Assembly (NCBI GenBank): GCA_965200355.1
Contig: OZ241351.1
Span: 1,714,426 to 1,778,425, forward strand
DNA length: 64,000 bases
DNA from: an uncultured Candidatus Binatia bacterium
GTDB taxonomy: Bacteria; Desulfobacterota; Binatia; Bin18
Reading direction: 5' to 3'
Part shown: in pieces, positions 3 to 34,779 of the stretch
Position numbering within the stretch: the stretch's first letter is position 1
How the letters are laid out: each line of letters opens with the position of its first letter
Position numbers and translations under genes: made by a program
The notes under the pieces: model-generated
Seen by the model: only the letters and a program-made list of their open reading frames with translations
Databases searched by the model: none
What the model was told of the DNA's origin: nothing

Positions 3-350
3 AAGCCGGTCGTTATGCCGCCAGACGAGCAGACGGCCGACTGGCTGTACGTGGCCGATGCCGCAGAGGTCTTTCGCCGGGCGTATCACCTCGAAAACCC
101 CCAATCCCGCGTGTTCAATATGGCCGGCCCCAGCCGCCAGACGGGCGAAATCACAGCCTATCTGCGCGCCTTGCTGCCCGAGGCCAACATCTCAGTCAGT
201 GATACCCCGGTTGCCATGACCTCGCTGGTCAACACCGACCGCCTGCGGACCGAATTGGGCTTCACTCCCAAGTACACGGTTGAGGAGGGCATTCTGGCCT
301 ATTTGAACGATGTGCGGAAGCGCGAAGGAATGCCGCTGGAGCCGCGCTAA
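3..350 (+). CDS. NAD-dependent epimerase/dehydratase family protein, C-terminal fragment (gene begins upstream of window)
   Basis: ORF open to the window edge. The tail ...GFTPKYTVEEGILAYL resembles epimerase/dehydratase C-termini. GC-rich third codon positions. Confidence 0.45.
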   Translation, partial: KPVVMPPDEQTADWLYVADAAEVFRRAYHLENPQSRVFNMAGPSRQTGEITAYLRALLPEANISVSDTPVAMTSLVNTDRLRTELGFTPKYTVEEGILAYLNDVRKREGMPLEPR

Positions 351-411
351 CCGCCCCCGACTACTGCTTCATAACTTCCAATACGCCCTTGATTCGTCTA
401 GGCTGAAAGGC

Positions 412-2046
412 ATGCCTGAAATCGCCTACCTCAAGGACCTCGTCATCGTGCTGGGGGCGGCGGTCGCGGTCGTCATCCTCCTGAAACGGGCTCACTTTCC
501 TTCGATTGCCGGCTTCATCCTGACCGGTGCGTTGGTCGGGCCTACCGGCCTCGGACTCATCAACGACTCACATCATGTCGAGGTCCTGGCCGAGGTTGGC
601 GTGGTCCTCCTGCTGTTCGGGATCGGCCTGGAACTCTCTCTCGACCGTCTCCAGCGTCTCTGGAAAGTCATCCTGCTGGGAGGGGGGTTGCAGGTTGCCC
701 TTACGGTTGCGTGTACGACCGGGTTAGCCGTGTGGTTCGGACTGTCGCCCGGCCCAGCGATATTCTTGGGCTGTGTCGTCGCGGTCTCCAGCACGGCGGT
801 CGTCCTGCGCGCCCTGTCCACGAGTGGGGAACTGGAAGCGCCGCACGGCCGTCTGGCAGTCGGCATCCTCGTCTTTCAGGACCTGTGCGTGGTGCCAATG
901 ATGTTGGCAGTGCCCTACTTGGCTGGAGAGGGCGGCACAATGCGGGAAATTGCCACGACGGTTGGCACCGTGCTCGTGGTCCTCGTCGGGGTGTTGCTTG
1001 CGGCACGCCGCGTCGTTCCACGCCTCCTGGCGTTCGTGGCCCGGACGCGAGATCGCGAGCTTTTCATTCTGAGCGTCTTTCTCGTCTGCTTCGGTACGGC
1101 CTGGGCCTTATCGCTGGCCGGCATATCGCTGGCACTCGGCGCGTTTCTGGCTGGGCTGGTCGTCGCCGGGAGCGAGTTCCGACATCAGGCGATGTCGGAG
1201 GTGATCCCGGCCCGCGAGGTTCTGGCCAGCCTGTTCTTTGTTTCCATCGGGATGCTGCTGGAGGTCTCGGACGTTCTGGCGCATCTGATGCCGACCGTCG
1301 GCCTGCTGTGCCTCATCCTTGTTGGAAAATTCACCATTATTCTCTTCACCGCGCTGATACTCCGACTCCCCTTGCGGGTGGGTATCCTTTCCGCCACGAC
1401 GCTGTGCCAGATCGGGGAATTCTCATTCGTGCTCTTGAACGCTGCTTCTGGAACCGGGCTCCTCACCGCCGTGCTTGCCAACAACCTGCTGATGGCCATC
1501 GCCCTCTCCATGCTGCTGACGCCGATGGCCATTGCCTTTGGCCCACGCCTCGTCGGCAGCGCGGCGCATGTCCCCTGGCTGAACCGACTCTTGGGTGCAG
1601 AGCCCCCCGGCATCGATACGCCCGAGCCGCCCAGCAACCATATCATCGTTGCTGGCTATGGCCTGACAGGCCAGCGCGTCTGTCGGGCGGTTCGGGAGGC
1701 GGGTTTCACCTATGTCGCGGTTGACAGGAACCCTGACAAGGTGCGCGCGGCCCACGCCGCCGGAGACCGGGCCGTCCTCGGGGACATCGCGCAACAGGAG
1801 GTACTGGAGGAGCTCGGTTGCCGGCAGGCCCGCTTGGTGGTCGTGAATATCAACGATACCAGGGCCGCCGAATCCGCGGTCCGGACGGTGCGGACGACCG
1901 CCCCGCACGTCGCGGTGATCGCCCGGGCCCCATACGAGATGGACAAGGACTCGCTGCGGTCCGCCGGCGCCGCCCAGGTCATTACGGCCGAAGCGACGGC
2001 CAGCGAGGCGATAGTGGAAACCTGCCTGGCGGCCCTGCGTGTGTAA
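412..2046 (+). CDS. monovalent cation:proton antiporter-2 (CPA2, KefB-like) with C-terminal TrkA-N/RCK domain
   Basis: ATG at 412 preceded by gaaagg. About 12 hydrophobic segments. C-terminal Rossmann-like GYGLTGQRV...VAVD motif typical of KefB/KefC. Confidence 0.8.
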   Translation: MPEIAYLKDLVIVLGAAVAVVILLKRAHFPSIAGFILTGALVGPTGLGLINDSHHVEVLAEVGVVLLLFGIGLELSLDRLQRLWKVILLGGGLQVALTVACTTGLAVWFGLSPGPAIFLGCVVAVSSTAVVLRALSTSGELEAPHGRLAVGILVFQDLCVVPMMLAVPYLAGEGGTMREIATTVGTVLVVLVGVLLAARRVVPRLLAFVARTRDRELFILSVFLVCFGTAWALSLAGISLALGAFLAGLVVAGSEFRHQAMSEVIPAREVLASLFFVSIGMLLEVSDVLAHLMPTVGLLCLILVGKFTIILFTALILRLPLRVGILSATTLCQIGEFSFVLLNAASGTGLLTAVLANNLLMAIALSMLLTPMAIAFGPRLVGSAAHVPWLNRLLGAEPPGIDTPEPPSNHIIVAGYGLTGQRVCRAVREAGFTYVAVDRNPDKVRAAHAAGDRAVLGDIAQQEVLEELGCRQARLVVVNINDTRAAESAVRTVRTTAPHVAVIARAPYEMDKDSLRSAGAAQVITAEATASEAIVETCLAALRV

Positions 2047-2078
2047 TGCGGACACAGGCCGAAGAATGAACAGCCAGC

Positions 2079-2170
2079 GGTGAAAGCGGCCCAACGGACG
2101 GGGTAAGTGCACCGGAGGGCATAGGGTGAAAGCGGCCCAACGGACGGGGTAAGTGCACCGGAGGGCATAG
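2079..2170. repeat. perfect tandem duplication of a 46-bp unit (2 copies) between convergent genes
   Basis: Unit ggtgaaagcggcccaacggacggggtaagtgcaccggagggcatag occurs at 2079-2124 and 2125-2170 with no mismatch. Confidence 0.9.
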
Positions 2171-2233
2171 CCTGTCTGAGTGACGGGCGGAGGCGTGCCG
2201 GCGACGCGGGAGCCGTGCTCAGGAGGCGTTTCC

Positions 2234-2602
2234 TCAGCTTGCCCCCTGCGGCTGTACCGTTGACCGCTCAGGATGAAGTTGTGTGTCTTCGCAGTCCAAA
2301 TGAACAAATAAGGGATTTGGCTGGTGGTGATAAACAGCCCCTGTTCCGTAGTCTATGAGTCCTCCCAGCACGACTCCTGTGCCGGAAATCGTGGGAATAA
2401 GCGCGGTCGTATGCGCGCGGCAGCCCTCTTTGCGCAGCGTCACTTGAAGGGTCCCCTTTTTCGGCACTTCGATATTGCAGGGGGTCATACAGGTTGACCC
2501 GTTCGACAGTTCGACCTTCGCCCCCACTGGGTCGGTGTTAATAGACACAGATTCCGTTGTGCCGGTTATAATCGTGGCACAACTGCTTAAACCAGCCAAC
2601 AA
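2234..2602 (-). CDS. putative lipoprotein (hypothetical); start codon uncertain
   Basis: Lipobox-like LAGLSSC near the N-terminus. Apparent TTG start. The stop-to-stop ORF extends to about 2758, so the true start may lie upstream. Confidence 0.4.
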   Translation of the reverse strand: MLAGLSSCATIITGTTESVSINTDPVGAKVELSNGSTCMTPCNIEVPKKGTLQVTLRKEGCRAHTTALIPTISGTGVVLGGLIDYGTGAVYHHQPNPLFVHLDCEDTQLHPERSTVQPQGAS

Positions 2603-2927
2603 TAAGACCAGGGCAAGGCTCCTCCTGTAGCAGATGCAAACATGGACTCCTCCTCTACGTGTAGCTGAGCACCCGGCGGTTGTCGGGCCATTGCGAACGC
2701 CACACGGAGTTGTGAGGGTTCCCGCTTATTGACCACAGCGCAGGGAGCTACCCCGCGCCTAGGAGAGGTTTTTGTATTTGGCAGGTGACCCGACTCAGCA
2801 GGTCCCCTTGTGACGTTCGTGGGCGTACCTATACGGGAAATCGCATCGATTGTCAAAAGGGATACGGTCCACTCTGGCTTATTTTTGTCTACTCCGGCAT
2901 TCTGATTGTTATTGAGTGAGGACACCT

Positions 2928-4004
2928 ATGGACTTTGGCGTTGGCTTGCAGTCGCATATTCATAACGGATGGAAACACGCCCTGTTGGCCGAGCAGCTGG
3001 GGTTTACTCATGCCTGGTTTGTGGACTCGCAGCTGCTCACCTCGGACGTGTACGCTTGCCTGGCCCTGGCCGCCACGCATACCACCACGCTCCGACTCGG
3101 GACCGGCGTCACCATTGTGGGCACGCGCATTCCGCCTGTCATTGCCCATTCGATTGCCACTATCAATCAGCTTGCGCCGGGTCGGGTGATCCTCGGCTTA
3201 GGCACCGGTCATACGGCTTGGCGAACCATGAACATGCCGCCGGTTCCGCTCGCCGAGTTCCGGCACGCGGTTGAGGTCTGCCGGGGTCTGCTCCGGGGCG
3301 AGACGGTCGTCTATCGCGAGCGGGGCCGACAGAGCCATATTCGGTTCATGGATATCGAGCACGGCTATATCAACGTGGGCGAGCGGGTCCCCATCTATCT
3401 CGCCGCCTCACATCCCAAGGCCCAGGCTCTGGCCGGTGAGCTGGGCGACGGCCTGTTGACATTAAGCCTGCTCTCGCCCGATTCGCTTAGCCGCAATCTG
3501 GCGGCAGTCGCACCGGGCTGGGAAGACCGGGCCGGCGGGAAGCCGGCGGACTTCAGCGTGGTCACGCTCGGTATCTCCTGCGTGCTGCAAGCCGGCGAGG
3601 CCGTCAACAGCCGGCGTGTCCTGGCGCGGGTCGGCCCACGCATTGCGGTGGCCCTGCACTACGCCCATGAAGTCGCCAAACAGGGCAAAGCAGTACCGCT
3701 TTTTTTACAGCCCTTTCTGACGCCGGCCTACCAACGCTATCTGGACGACCGCTGGGCAGACATCCATGCCACGCACTCACGCTTTCTGCACCCAGGCGAA
3801 GACAAATTTATTACCCCCGAGGCCATTCGGGCCATGAGCCTGACCGGCTCGCGGGATGACATCCTTGAGCGCCTCCATCAGCTTGAAGCCGCGGGGCTTA
3901 CCCAGATGGTGATCTCTCCCCCGTGGGGCCTGATAGAAGAAAGCCTCGTCGAATTCGCCAGCGAGATTATCGGGCCATACAAACAGCAAACCCCTAACCA
4001 CTAG
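2928..4004 (+). CDS. LLM-class (luciferase-like) flavin-dependent oxidoreductase
   Basis: ATG 2928 with gagga RBS. TIM-barrel LLM signatures (GLGTGHTA, ...LGDGLL...); about 358 aa. Confidence 0.75.
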   Translation: MDFGVGLQSHIHNGWKHALLAEQLGFTHAWFVDSQLLTSDVYACLALAATHTTTLRLGTGVTIVGTRIPPVIAHSIATINQLAPGRVILGLGTGHTAWRTMNMPPVPLAEFRHAVEVCRGLLRGETVVYRERGRQSHIRFMDIEHGYINVGERVPIYLAASHPKAQALAGELGDGLLTLSLLSPDSLSRNLAAVAPGWEDRAGGKPADFSVVTLGISCVLQAGEAVNSRRVLARVGPRIAVALHYAHEVAKQGKAVPLFLQPFLTPAYQRYLDDRWADIHATHSRFLHPGEDKFITPEAIRAMSLTGSRDDILERLHQLEAAGLTQMVISPPWGLIEESLVEFASEIIGPYKQQTPNH

Positions 4005-31028: not shown

Positions 31029-32348
31029 TTACACCCGGACCCGGGTCCAGCCGCCGGTCTGCCAACTCCAGACAAAGATCACAGTCTGGAGGATACGGTA
31101 GACGATTCTGACTATCCAGATCGCCAGCAAACCGCATCCCCATACGGCCTGCATGGCAAAGGCGATGGGCAGAAACAGACACCATTGCAGGGTCAGGGAG
31201 ACCACCATCACTCGCCGGCTGTGCCCGGCTCCATAGTGGGCACTGATCAGCACAGAACCGAAGGCTTCGATTGATGTGGCGGCAGCGGAGAGTTGCAGCG
31301 GCAGCCGGGCGAGCGCCAGCGTTTCCGGGTCGTGCAGGAACAGCAGCAGAATCAGGTCGGGCGCGAACAGGAGCGGCAGGGCCAAGCCGCCAACCAACAG
31401 CATGGAGAGGCGAGCCACATACCAGCCCCAGGCCCGTGCCTCCGCGACCTTACCAGCGCCCAGGGATTGGCCGACAAAAGACGCCGCGGCCATACTAAAC
31501 CCATTGGTCAAGAGAAACAGCAGCAGCAGGACGTTGGACAGGACATGACCGGCGGCGAGTTCCGCGGTGCCGATATTGCCCAGAATCCAGAAAAAGGCCA
31601 GCAGGCCGGCGGCAAAGAAGACGTGCTGAATGCAGGCCGGAAGCGAGAGGCGCACCAGGATCAGCAGCGTGGCCCGGTCCGGCCAGCGGGCTAAAAAGCC
31701 CCCGGCACGGGCATGGCGCAGAGCGGTGAGCAGATACGCCGCCGACCCGACATACAAGGCCGTGGTGGTGCCGATACCAGCCCCGAGGACCCCCAGCCGT
31801 GGCGCACCAAGATTGCCGAAGATCAACACCCAATTGAGGAAGATATTGGTGAGATTCATCAGAATAATGGTGCGCATATAGAACTTGGACAGATTGACCG
31901 CGTTCCAGTAGCTGCGAAAGACAAAGTTGGTGCCCATAGCGAGCAGGCCGACCAGACGCGCCTGAAAATAGACCGTCCCGTGGGCGGTGACCGCAGGGTC
32001 CTGTCCGAGGATGGCGAACAGGGTCGGCGCGAGATGAACCAGCAGGGCCGAGGTCGGCAGGCTGAGCACCAGGACGAGTAGCAGCCCGCCATTCAACGGC
32101 ACGGCGACTTCACTCAGGCGACCGGCCCCCAGCCAGCGGGCCGAGGTGGCCTGTACGCCGGTTGCCAAGCCGATGATGAACGCCCCGCAGGTAAAGGTTG
32201 AGAACTGAGCCAGCCCGACCGACGCCAGCGCCTCGTCGCCCAGCGCGCCCAGCATGGCCGTGTCCACCATATTCATGATGTTCTGGGAGATCATGCCGCC
32301 CATGATGGGCAGGGCAAGGTTAAGCGTCCGGCGCAGGCGGGAGGTCAC
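31029..32348 (-). CDS. MATE-family efflux transporter
   Basis: 12 TM segments. MATE N-terminal signature ...LALPIMGGMISQNIMNMVDTAMLG. Confidence 0.8.
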   Translation of the reverse strand: MTSRLRRTLNLALPIMGGMISQNIMNMVDTAMLGALGDEALASVGLAQFSTFTCGAFIIGLATGVQATSARWLGAGRLSEVAVPLNGGLLLVLVLSLPTSALLVHLAPTLFAILGQDPAVTAHGTVYFQARLVGLLAMGTNFVFRSYWNAVNLSKFYMRTIILMNLTNIFLNWVLIFGNLGAPRLGVLGAGIGTTTALYVGSAAYLLTALRHARAGGFLARWPDRATLLILVRLSLPACIQHVFFAAGLLAFFWILGNIGTAELAAGHVLSNVLLLLFLLTNGFSMAAASFVGQSLGAGKVAEARAWGWYVARLSMLLVGGLALPLLFAPDLILLLFLHDPETLALARLPLQLSAAATSIEAFGSVLISAHYGAGHSRRVMVVSLTLQWCLFLPIAFAMQAVWGCGLLAIWIVRIVYRILQTVIFVWSWQTGGWTRVRV

Positions 32349-32382: not shown

Positions 32383-32520
32383 TTTTCATTCTCATTGCGG
32401 CTGCGTCAGTCCGGCGCTGACACGGACCGCGCTGAGCGCGCGGGCCAGTTCAAACTCCGGCTCCAGCGCGTCGTAGGCGGCCCGATAGTCCGATCCTAGC
32501 TCTATTTCTGGTGCAGGTCT
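32383..32520 (-). pseudogene. truncated XRE-family HTH gene remnant (no start codon; stop directly after ...SAGLTQPQ)
   Basis: Minus-strand translation ...YRAAYDALEPEFELARALSAVRVSAGLTQPQ*, similar in architecture to the XRE N-terminus at 6704-6958. Confidence 0.3.
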
Positions 32521-32534
32521 CTCACCGTGCTCAT

Positions 32535-33659
32535 TTATGGAAAATCCACGCGTAGCTCTTGTCCGAGCGGTCCAGCTATTTGGATCGTTTTATTGATTAT
32601 CTCTCTAATCGTACCAGCGGGGAAATTTTTCCAAAGCCACCATCCTGGAACGACCTCAGTAGAGTGTTTTTCGTTGTATTCGGCGTCTTTTTTAGGATGA
32701 AGCTGGTATCGGTCTCGTGACAAATATCTTATTTCTCGCCCCCGTATCTGATCAGCAAATCTTTCCAGGAACGTCGAATCTTCTTGGTGAAGAAGCTGAA
32801 GAACCTTCTTCAGTGCCCCAATAGCTTTGTCTTCTTGATAAGGTGTCCCTTTGAAAACAATACTGAAGGTTCCAGTTTTTCGGGTACGCGCCTCTTGTGT
32901 GTTCGGTGTTTGTGGGGACGGGTTTTGTGGCAGACTTCGCTCAGACGGGCCAAGCTCTTTAGGGGTGCTTTTCCGTATTGACTCCAGAAATTCCTCACAG
33001 GCGGCAGGTTCCGGTTTGTAGCCGCAGAGATCGGCAACCTTCTCCGCCAACATTTCTAGCAGCAAAGAATCCGGTTCTTCTAACAAGGCATTCCAGGCTT
33101 TCGGGAAAGTTCTCTCTATTTTGCGGTCCTGCACAACATTCTGGTAGTCAGACTTTGCAGCCTCCAGGGCTTCCCCGGAACAGACTCTCTCATAACTGAG
33201 ATACCGATTCAGTCTTTCAACCACCTCATCCGTATCTCTCTCCAATATGTCGAGTTTATACACTCGGCGCTCGTCATAACGCCCTTGTTCACCTGGCAAG
33301 TAGAATATCCATTCTTGTCCGTCGGTCAGGACGGCCATTGGAACTCCAACGTGAAAGACGTATTCAAATAACTGGCGGTCGGCTGCCTCGGATAAGTTTC
33401 CTACTTTTTTCACCTCAACAAAGACACTCGGCTGCCTGGGAGAATGACACAGCGCAAAATCAACCCGGCGATTCTCTACCGAGTATTCAGGAATAACGAG
33501 AGAGGTATCAAAAATGTCCCAGTCTAACCCCTGTAAGATACGACGAAGGATGTCCTGAGAAACCTCTGCCTCCGATTCGAATTTCTTCTGCTGCAAGTCG
33601 GCTTTAACTCTTTCTATCTGTTCCGTGAGAGGCATAGTGCTCCTTCCTCTATCATTCAT
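32535..33659 (-). CDS. hypothetical protein with N-terminal HSDR_N-type (type I restriction enzyme R N-terminal-like, PD-ExK) domain
   Basis: ...SEAEVSQDILRRILQGLDWDI...ENRRVDFALC...PSVFVEVKKVG. The C-terminal ~200 aa are unknown. Region GC is clearly lower than flanks. Alternative start at 33635 (MPLTEQ). Confidence 0.5.
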   Translation of the reverse strand: MNDRGRSTMPLTEQIERVKADLQQKKFESEAEVSQDILRRILQGLDWDIFDTSLVIPEYSVENRRVDFALCHSPRQPSVFVEVKKVGNLSEAADRQLFEYVFHVGVPMAVLTDGQEWIFYLPGEQGRYDERRVYKLDILERDTDEVVERLNRYLSYERVCSGEALEAAKSDYQNVVQDRKIERTFPKAWNALLEEPDSLLLEMLAEKVADLCGYKPEPAACEEFLESIRKSTPKELGPSERSLPQNPSPQTPNTQEARTRKTGTFSIVFKGTPYQEDKAIGALKKVLQLLHQEDSTFLERFADQIRGREIRYLSRDRYQLHPKKDAEYNEKHSTEVVPGWWLWKNFPAGTIREIINKTIQIAGPLGQELRVDFP

Positions 33660-33699
33660 GGTCGCGCCAGCTTTACATCACTGCCCTGCTTTCTCAAAA

Positions 33700-33918
33700 C
33701 TACGCGGACAACAGTCGGCCCCTTGGCTCTGGAAGCGGACGCCCTTGTTCTTCCGCCGTTTCTATCCACTCCCTCATGATCACCTCAACATTGGCGAGCG
33801 CTTTCTTGTAGGTTGATCCATCAGCCATGCAGCCGGGTAGCTCGGGAACTGCGGCAATATAGGCGGCGTCCTCTTCGCTCCAATAAATAAGAATTTCGTG
33901 TTTCCACTTACGGCTCAT
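33700..33918 (-). CDS. HicB-family (UPF0150) antitoxin-like protein
   Basis: ...YWSEEDAAYIAAVPELPGCMADGSTYKKALANVEVIMREWIE...GRPLPEP, a typical HicB N-domain. No hicA neighbour. Confidence 0.6.
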   Translation of the reverse strand: MSRKWKHEILIYWSEEDAAYIAAVPELPGCMADGSTYKKALANVEVIMREWIETAEEQGRPLPEPRGRLLSA

Positions 33919-33944
33919 GATCTCCTCCGGCCAGACGATTTCGC

Positions 33945-34698
33945 CTACCCCCGCCCGATAAACGGCATTTTGGTGGCCATAACAGTCATGAATTGCACAT
34001 TGGCGTCGAGCGGCAGGTTGGCCATATAGACGACCGCCTGGGCGACGTGTTCGACATCGAAGGTCGGCTCGGCTGCGACCGAGCCGTTGGGTTGCGGCAC
34101 ACCGCGTTGCATGACCGCGGTCATATCGGTCTCGGCGTTGCCGATGTCGATCTGGCCGCAGGCAATATCGTATTGACGCCCGTCGAGTGAGGTTGATCTG
34201 GTCAGGCCGGTCATAGCGTGCTTGGTTGCGGTGTAGGGCGCGGAGTTGGGCCGGGGCACATGGGCCGAGATAGAGCCGTTATTGATGATGCGCCCTCCCC
34301 GAGGGTCCTGGTCTTTCATGATCTTGAAGGCTTCCTGGGTGCAGACAAACGCGCCGGTCAGATTCACATCCACGACCGCCCGCCACTGTTCATACGGCAG
34401 TGCTTCCAGGGGGACGGGTGGAGCGCCGATGCCGGCGTTGTTGAATACGACGTCAAGCCGTCCAAAGGTGGTTTTTGTGGTGGCAAACAGGGCACGAATA
34501 GCGTCCGGGTCCCTGACATCAGTGGGGGCAATCAGCGTCTGCGCCTCACCGCCGGCCTCTTTGGCCGTGGCTGCCAACAACTCCGCCCGCCGTCCGGCCA
34601 AGACAACCGCATAGCCTGCCCGGACAAGCGCCAGGGCACTCGCCTTGCCAACTCCAGTGCCCGCCCCGGTAATGAGGGCGACCTTTGTATAGGTGCTC
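33945..34698 (-). CDS. SDR-family oxidoreductase
   Basis: [13 protein letters not shown] (TGxxxGxG); ...YTATKHA (YxxxK). Confidence 0.8.
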
Positions 34699-34779
34699 AT
34701 ATCTCTGCTCTCCTTCACGTGTAGGCCGGAGCACAAAAAACGAAAAACTGCCTACTAAAAACCGACTCCTAAAAACTAC

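Follow-up and report, generated by a model that had tools for sequence, protein, structure and literature searches.

An orphan hicB gene beside a solitary COG2810-family nuclease with a predicted SeqA-like domain in a small chromosomal hotspot of a Candidatus Binatia bacterium

The DNA considered here is a 64,000-nucleotide (nt) stretch of a contig from an uncultured Candidatus Binatia bacterium (hereafter the window), and our subject is a small block of genes between a short-chain dehydrogenase (SDR) gene and a MATE transporter gene. The block comprises, in the direction of transcription, the extreme 3' end of a hicA toxin gene, a HicB-like open reading frame (ORF) of 72 residues (33700-33918), an ORF of 374 residues with a nuclease domain (32535-33659), and a degraded fragment of an XRE-family antitoxin gene, all on the (-) strand. 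An earlier note had listed the two ORFs exactly so and had read them as a horizontally acquired toxin-antitoxin-like or defence module in which HicB has the nuclease for a partner instead of HicA. Comparison with loci from other genomes (here L001 and L081-L085) favors a different reading: the locus probably represents an orphan hicB beside an imported solitary nuclease, for which we propose modification-dependent restriction, in a hotspot of toxin-antitoxin and defence genes.

The 72-residue product is a bona fide HicB N-domain protein, as had been noted. It matches the Pfam models HicB_lk_antitox (PF15919; E = 7.5e-8, 33 bits against a cutoff of 27) and UPF0150 (PF21748; 2.5e-6) and belongs to a very large family of 72-residue proteins that contain only the HicB N-domain, differing from the HicAB type II toxin-antitoxin systems in having no ribbon-helix-helix (RHH) or helix-turn-helix DNA-binding domain. 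When the closest relatives of this HicB on long contigs were looked up, four syntenic loci on four contigs were obtained (L082-L085), which share the flanking SDR and MATE genes with the window and, in three of the four cases, TusA and UvrD as well. The gene order in L084 is SDR, hicA, hicB (overlapping hicA) and MATE, without a nuclease; its HicA has 87 residues (Pfam HicA_toxin, 7.6e-7). L085 has the same arrangement, but its hicA is frameshifted by a 1-nt insertion, and the HicB of these two hicA-hicB pairs is 89% identical to that of the window. L083 has an intact hicA-hicB pair followed by DUF3969, DUF2442, XRE, RHH and PIN genes; in L082 hicA is lost, and hicB is followed by a PIN gene and an unrelated 353-residue protein. 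The remaining syntenic locus, L001, comes from a metagenome-assembled genome of a Candidatus Binatia bacterium with flanks 86-88% identical to those of the window; there the SDR, HicB and nuclease genes are followed by 80 nt that duplicate the 5' end of MATE, then by a Gp49/HigB-like toxin, an XRE antitoxin and MATE itself.

No hicA gene (PF07927) is present in the 64-kb window, and to this extent the statement in the earlier note that HicA is missing stands; what it had passed over is a remnant of the last ~11 codons of hicA (33908..33943, (-) strand), the sole HicA match in the window. Of this, the 32 nt at 33908-33939 match the 3' terminus of the complete L084 hicA at 100% identity in a blastn comparison, and residues 77-87 of HicA are matched at 33943-33911 in tblastn. 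The remnant sits directly upstream of the hicB start, which it overlaps, and the rest of hicA is gone. Because the syntenic loci hold hicA-hicB and the window retains this 32-nt 3' end, we consider it very likely that hicB is an orphan left by a canonical hicA-hicB pair after deletion of hicA. Purifying selection on hicB has persisted after the loss, with a ratio of nonsynonymous to synonymous substitution rates (dN/dS) of 0.22-0.48. At the deletion junction (window 33925-33945, compared with the L084 and L001 spacers) there is a short similarity between GAAATCGTCTGG after the SDR stop and GAAATATCGTCTGG near the hicA 3' end, a pattern compatible with a microhomology-mediated deletion.

The proposal of a toxin-antitoxin-like pairing between HicB and the nuclease, in which a PD-(D/E)xK toxin took the place of HicA and is neutralised by HicB, draws on two observations that count against treating the two genes as unconnected. 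In the window as in L001 they are direct neighbours with a common orientation (64 and 37 nt apart, respectively) and no predicted terminator between them, and the selection on hicB outlasted its original partner. Co-transcription of the two genes, and some acquired regulatory link, may thus exist; a promoter and terminator scan of the hicB-nuclease gap in the window found no signal on the relevant strand that exceeded the level of shuffled sequence. The comparative evidence points the other way. We scanned ~185,000 species genomes (one genome per species, in a pattern-limited search) for the nuclease family and confirmed 309 loci, of which 80 were fetched for neighbourhood analysis. In phmmer searches of these 80 loci with the window HicB, a neighbouring match was found only in L001, apart from one weak downstream match, and in a Pfam scan HicB_lk was detected in one of 95 upstream same-strand ORFs, again that of L001. 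When the ORFs within 3 kb were all clustered by BLASTP, none of the resulting clusters was present in more than three of the 80 loci, and those with three loci derive mostly from syntenic Binatia genomes. Likewise, the 105 large flanking ORFs of 57 loci contain 142 Pfam families, none of which occurs beside more than three members. Co-occurrence of hicB and the nuclease across genomes is therefore confined to one of 80 loci, the syntenic ortholog L001, with which the window shares the adjacency by vertical inheritance; the other 79, including the closest non-syntenic relative (L081, on a Tara contig, 78% identical), have neither a HicB-like neighbour nor any other conserved partner. A constitutive toxin could not exist partnerless in all those genomes, and hicA has also been lost in relatives that have no COG2810 nuclease (L082, L085); both points speak against the nuclease as the replacement of HicA. 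The same hicB is, moreover, paired with a real hicA in L084 and L083, the arrangement in L084 (hicA-hicB without a nuclease) being the ancestral one, the nuclease is unrelated to HicA, and the two genes of the window differ in their guanine-plus-cytosine (GC) content (0.543 for hicB and 0.479 for the nuclease gene). Accordingly, the adjacency is a chance arrangement that a single lineage has inherited vertically, and we regard a functional toxin-antitoxin pair as very improbable.

The nuclease gene is best assigned a start at M9 (33635; residue numbers throughout follow the 374-residue ORF), which is supported by homologs and by a good Shine-Dalgarno sequence. It then spans 32535..33635 on the (-) strand and encodes 366 residues, and the distance to hicB becomes 64 nt in place of the 40 nt measured in the earlier note from the longest ORF. 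More than 2560 homologs were recovered; the best 120 of these are full-length, 52-78% identical and distributed over many phyla, and the best cover 95-99% of the query. Identity across phyla is in the range of 50-58%. The homologs carry names such as "hypothetical", "HsdR N-terminal domain-containing" and "predicted type IV restriction endonuclease" (COG2810), and COG2810 has previously been grouped with HSDR_N as predicted type IV enzymes (PMC3424549). They span Chloroflexota, Desulfobacterota, Campylobacterota, Cyanobacteria, Acidobacteriota and archaea, and the loci fetched for neighbourhood analysis include representatives from Binatia, Chloroflexota, Desulfobacterota, Acidobacteriota, Nitrosomonas, Burkholderiales, the Candidate Phyla Radiation and Bathyarchaeia. 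PADLOC and NCBIfam scans of HicB and the nuclease returned nothing meaningful.

In 56 of 72 loci the GC content of the family gene lies below that of its flanks. In the window the block falls to 0.47-0.52 against 0.60-0.65 in its surroundings, and the AT-rich character ascribed to it earlier is real. When resolved by feature, however, GC is 0.479 in the nuclease gene (0.438 in its last domain), 0.543 in hicB, 0.655 in the XRE remnant and 0.62-0.63 in the flanks; the dip is thus essentially confined to the nuclease gene, and the XRE remnant, which had been counted in it, is host-like. Around the block, searches for direct and inverted repeats at its flanks and for scars of integration uncovered only repeats of 12-18 nt, at chance level. 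Its low GC and the scattered occurrence of its family among phyla show that the gene was horizontally acquired, as had been supposed from the base composition, and we conclude with high confidence that it is a solitary, imported member of the widespread COG2810 family.

The protein shares with this family full-length homology (50-78%), the invariant catalytic residues, and an architecture of three parts, namely a PD-(D/E)xK core, a helical middle region and a variable low-complexity linker that leads into a conserved C-terminal domain of ~110 residues. The core (33249..33578, (-) strand) matches Pfam HSDR_N (E = 5.2e-7) and HSDR_N_2 (8.8e-6), both above cutoff, which upholds the domain assignment in the earlier note. 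In an alignment of 29 family members (A1, with 77 invariant columns) D67, E82-V83-K84 and Q96xxxY100 are invariant, and all are present in the window protein, from which its active site is predicted to be intact. For this part of the protein, Foldseek gave weak matches only (E 0.17-2.3), to restriction proteins that contain a nuclease (EcoR124I HsdR, BpuSI and DrdV). The middle region (32967..33233, (-) strand) is conserved, is helical in the AlphaFold2 (AF2) model and contains the invariant Cys160, Cys212 and Cys221. Together with Cys71 of the nuclease core these make four cysteines that are invariant in the 29 diverse members, which suggests a Zn or Fe-S site that would bridge the core and the middle; the AF2 model has low confidence there (residues 177-214 of the middle region).

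Type I HsdR has HSDR_N as its nuclease domain, and the window protein might on this account read an unmodified sequence with the help of an unlinked methyltransferase or motor, as a stand-alone module of a split type I- or II-like system. Two to three of 57 family loci do adjoin N6_Mtase, ResIII or HSDR_N genes (N6_Mtase, ResIII, HSDR_N and HNH_2 were each found twice among the 105 flanking ORFs). Unlike HsdR, however, the 366 residues contain no ResIII or Helicase_C domain, that is, no superfamily 2 helicase motor, and there is no hsdM or hsdS in the window neighbourhood; neither a methyltransferase nor a helicase is linked to the nuclease in the window or in the great majority of loci, and the protein has a DNA-binding-type domain of its own. 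We thus consider such a split system improbable.

This last domain (32538..32873, (-) strand) accounts for ~110 of the ~200 C-terminal residues that the earlier note had left unassigned. It is modeled with confidence by AF2, with a predicted local distance difference test score of ~90 in the full-length model and 92.8 when modeled alone. In Foldseek searches of the PDB its only confident matches (probability 0.97-1.00) are five chains from four structures of SeqA-DNA complexes, with template modeling scores of 0.56-0.64 (0.62-0.64 for the four E. coli chains) and root mean square deviations of 3.0-4.0 Å over ~95 residues, and the next-best match has a probability of 0.02. The domain is thus predicted, on the basis of these structural models, to have the fold of the C-terminal domain of SeqA, the replication-origin sequestration protein of Dam+ gammaproteobacteria, which reads hemimethylated GATC. 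An hhalign comparison of the family with E. coli SeqA gave E = 8.8e-5 (the numbering of the SeqA sequence used agrees with published residue numbers); it pairs the family motif HGKKRRY with SeqA 114-120 (HGRTRVY) and the motif PGWWLGTN with the Asn150 loop. In SeqA, Asn150 and Asn152 lie in the DNA-binding loop, and an N150A/N152A mutant does not bind DNA (PMC2691817). The equivalent of Asn150 is nearly invariant in the family, but that of Asn152 is not conserved. The Pfam SeqA model matches eight of the 29 aligned members with E-values of 3e-5 to 1e-2.

Several observations weigh against a close equivalence to SeqA. The Pfam SeqA match of the window protein (PF03925, residues 275-360; E = 3.8e-4) reaches 20.9 bits where the cutoff is 25.5, and the NCBIfam SeqA model scores 17.6 against a cutoff of 185. 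Searches of the PDB sequences with the whole protein (phmmer), with a profile of the C-terminal domain and with a consensus-like C-terminal sequence returned nothing significant, the SeqA chains having E ~0.4; matches to NDUFB10 in the same search were judged spurious. The window protein has a nuclease at its N-terminus and no SeqA-type oligomerisation domain, and the phyletic distribution of the family is unlike that of SeqA. Finally, the window carries a divergent allele of the domain, a variant that L081/P0002 also has, which departs from the family consensus at the very motifs that correspond to the SeqA contacts (QIRGREIRY for RKHGKKRRY and WKNFPAGT for GTNYSRRN), and the specificity, or even the DNA binding, of this allele may be different. 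The window as a whole (1-64000) contains 127 GATC sites against 228 expected from base composition (a ratio of 0.56), with CTAG strongly depleted (0.10) and GANTC as expected (0.99); the GATC depletion was dropped as a clue to the specificity of the nuclease, being too weak.

A profile of the C-terminal domain recovers 1154 representative clusters. Some family members contain it in two to five tandem copies (e.g. P0005 and P0006 of ~500 residues, and P0241 of 874 residues), and others have it fused to SLFN_AlbA_2, Mrr_N or DUF7662, or combined with HSDR_N in other arrangements or with extra HSDR_N copies. Such tandem copies and fusions are typical of a mobile DNA-reader module of conflict systems. 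Iyer et al. have noted SeqA as a reader of N6-methyladenine that is fused to RAMA domains (PMC4738411); in the literature on SeqA-like and SeqA-domain fusions we found no description of a fusion of an HSDR_N nuclease with a SeqA-like domain.

Comparison of the window gene with its nearest relatives reveals a mosaic. Relative to L001 the nuclease core and the middle region show 87-88% nucleotide and 84-87% amino acid identity, but the C-terminal domain only 53% and 38%, respectively, the similarity between the two DNAs ending at 32834; with L081, in contrast, the C-terminal domain shares 81% nucleotide and 72% amino acid identity. This discrepancy shows that recombination has exchanged the reader domain while the nuclease backbone stayed nearly constant. 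The nuclease gene is under purifying selection, as its dN/dS lies between 0.22 and 0.59 wherever the synonymous rate can be estimated (this rate is saturated between the two reader alleles). The highest value, 0.59, belongs to the C-terminal domain. Taken with the decay of both neighbouring toxin-antitoxin modules, the off-consensus residues at the putative DNA-contact motifs and the loss of a near-invariant histidine, this value could point to a decaying, non-functional copy of the nuclease in an eroding locus. Yet the ORF is intact with all nuclease invariants retained, no segment has a dN/dS as high as 1, AF2 gives a confident model, and an intact gene on the unrelated Tara contig L081 has the same divergent C-terminal allele (72% amino acid identity). 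A pseudogene status was rejected, and we see only a slim chance that the window copy is non-functional.

How this nuclease might act is suggested by analogy. Its SeqA-like domain would dock on a DNA mark or sequence, most likely N6-methyladenine at a hemi- or fully methylated site if SeqA is a guide, and the N-terminal PD-(D/E)xK/QxxxY domain would then cut nearby. The protein would in this way serve as a methyltransferase-less, modification-dependent (type IV-like) restriction nuclease that attacks foreign DNA. It would acquire new targets when alleles exchange the reader domain, and HicB would not be needed for its action. There is no methyltransferase near the nuclease gene in the window, and N6_Mtase is present in two of the 105 flanking ORFs examined in 57 loci. 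In DpnI and HhiV4I a nuclease is fused to a domain that reads adenine-methylated DNA, without a cognate methyltransferase (PMC11037411). Like DpnI and the winged-helix-fusion, N6-methyladenine-dependent type IV/IIM enzymes, the window protein combines a PD-(D/E)xK nuclease with a separate putative reader domain and has no linked methyltransferase; it differs from them in that the reader is predicted to have the SeqA-C fold and not that of a winged helix. We advance modification-dependent restriction as a tentative mechanism, short of a probable one. A shade more tentative is its extension to the whole family, by which COG2810 proteins might be solitary restriction nucleases that employ a SeqA-type reader, in place of a winged helix, SRA or PUA domain, for adenine-methylated and perhaps hemimethylated (freshly replicated) DNA, and that diversify their targets by swapping or multiplying this reader, the window carrying a rare reader allele.

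A role in defence faces some counter-evidence. Most neighbours of the family genes are housekeeping genes, with no explicit link to defence islands among them; tblastn searches of plasmid and phage collections gave only distant matches to the N-terminal domain and no full-length relatives; and the literature on COG2810 and on SeqA-like fusions contains, as far as we found, no characterisation of the nuclease family and no biochemistry of any member. The first two observations, the SeqA-like fold and the very high conservation (50-58% identity across phyla) would suit a housekeeping or chromosome-maintenance factor, for instance a repair nuclease specific for certain structures, or a protein that processes hemimethylated DNA in the manner of MutH or SeqA. 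The distribution of the family speaks for something else: its spread is patchy (309 confirmed matches in the ~185,000 species genomes of the pattern-limited scan), synteny is not conserved beyond close relatives, GC is below that of the flanks at most loci, the gene is polymorphic for presence and absence at this site among the Binatia relatives, and the reader domain is swapped and duplicated. As patchiness, absence of synteny, low GC, polymorphism and reader swaps are typical of accessory and defence genes, the nuclease fits better with these than with core functions, and is plausibly a defence gene; the housekeeping role we deem unlikely.

The third element of the block lies immediately downstream of the nuclease gene. 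The fragment at 32396..32534 ((-) strand) shows 83.6% nucleotide identity with the 5' portion of an XRE gene that is intact in L001, where that gene follows a Gp49 toxin gene in a HigBA-like pair (Pfam Gp49, 4.2e-24; HTH_3 for the XRE antitoxin, 2.2e-11). The earlier note had correctly recognized a degraded XRE gene, but it is not start-less: the ATG is retained (32534-32532), abutting the nuclease stop codon, and the gene is disrupted by TAG nonsense codons at two places, by a frameshift of 1 nt and by three internal deletions (7, 68 and 40 nt). The fragment is a multi-lesion pseudogene of the antitoxin of a Gp49/XRE module whose toxin gene has been deleted from the window; in L001 the module is intact. 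There the module is bracketed by a 68-nt direct repeat (L001 7188-7255 and 7955-8022, 97% identical) that corresponds to the first bases of the MATE ORF and looks like a target duplication or recombination footprint of cassette insertion at the MATE 5' end. This repeat is absent from the window, and no comparable repeat or scar flanks the window block.

On either side the locus is bounded by conserved genes of the (-) strand that are syntenic in L001 and L082-L085, the MATE transporter on the right (31029..32348; Pfam MatE, 4.7e-40) and the SDR on the left (33945..34736; Pfam adh_short, 5.7e-49). Because the space between hicB and MATE contains different cargo in each genome (PIN/RHH, DUF2442/XRE, Gp49/XRE, or nucleases), the SDR-MATE interval is a hotspot, specific to this lineage, for the build-up and decay of small toxin-antitoxin and defence genes. 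As to its history, a canonical hicA-hicB pair was the original resident of the interval; in the window genome hicA was deleted down to 32 nt, which left hicB orphaned, the Gp49/XRE module lost its toxin gene and retained its antitoxin as a pseudogene, and the 366-residue gene arrived independently by horizontal transfer. The suspicion of decay or recombination at the site was well founded, given the deletions of hicA and the Gp49 toxin gene, the XRE pseudogene and the swapped C-terminal domain of the nuclease.

Some further features of the relatives may be recorded. The 353-residue cargo protein of L082 (6166-7227), whose gene adjoins the PIN gene on the opposite strand, has a faint PD-(D/E)xK signature (NucS_C 0.021, HSDR_N 0.049; motif RRIDLLAVD...VVIELKR); it was rejected as a distant homolog of the window nuclease, BLASTP comparison giving E = 1.5 or worse. 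A DUF3969-like gene for 117 residues is found upstream of the nuclease in L081 (1380-1733) and directly downstream of hicB in L083 (5280-5633), a hint that these small cassettes move among sites of a similar kind. In L084 the region 190-3562, between a luciferase-like gene and the SDR gene, is occupied by P63C, IS1595-family transposase and T5orf172 genes and is a second variable spot, just upstream of the hotspot.

A nuclease in the role of HicA would have been a new toxin-antitoxin architecture; the comparative data say that it is not, and a false call of a new system is thereby avoided. The locus is an otherwise ordinary hotspot holding a member of a known family, and the one modestly new point is the SeqA-like reader domain and the swapping of its alleles. 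For the bacterium, it offers a clean and datable example of how toxin-antitoxin and defence genes enter, recombine and erode at a small chromosomal hotspot that is enclosed by a pair of housekeeping genes. For the family, the C-terminal third of a very common group of "hypothetical" or "predicted type IV restriction" proteins becomes assignable, by prediction, to the SeqA DNA-binding fold, which leads to the hypothesis that their specificity depends on the reading of methylated adenine; this assignment could yield new modification-dependent enzymes for epigenomic tools.

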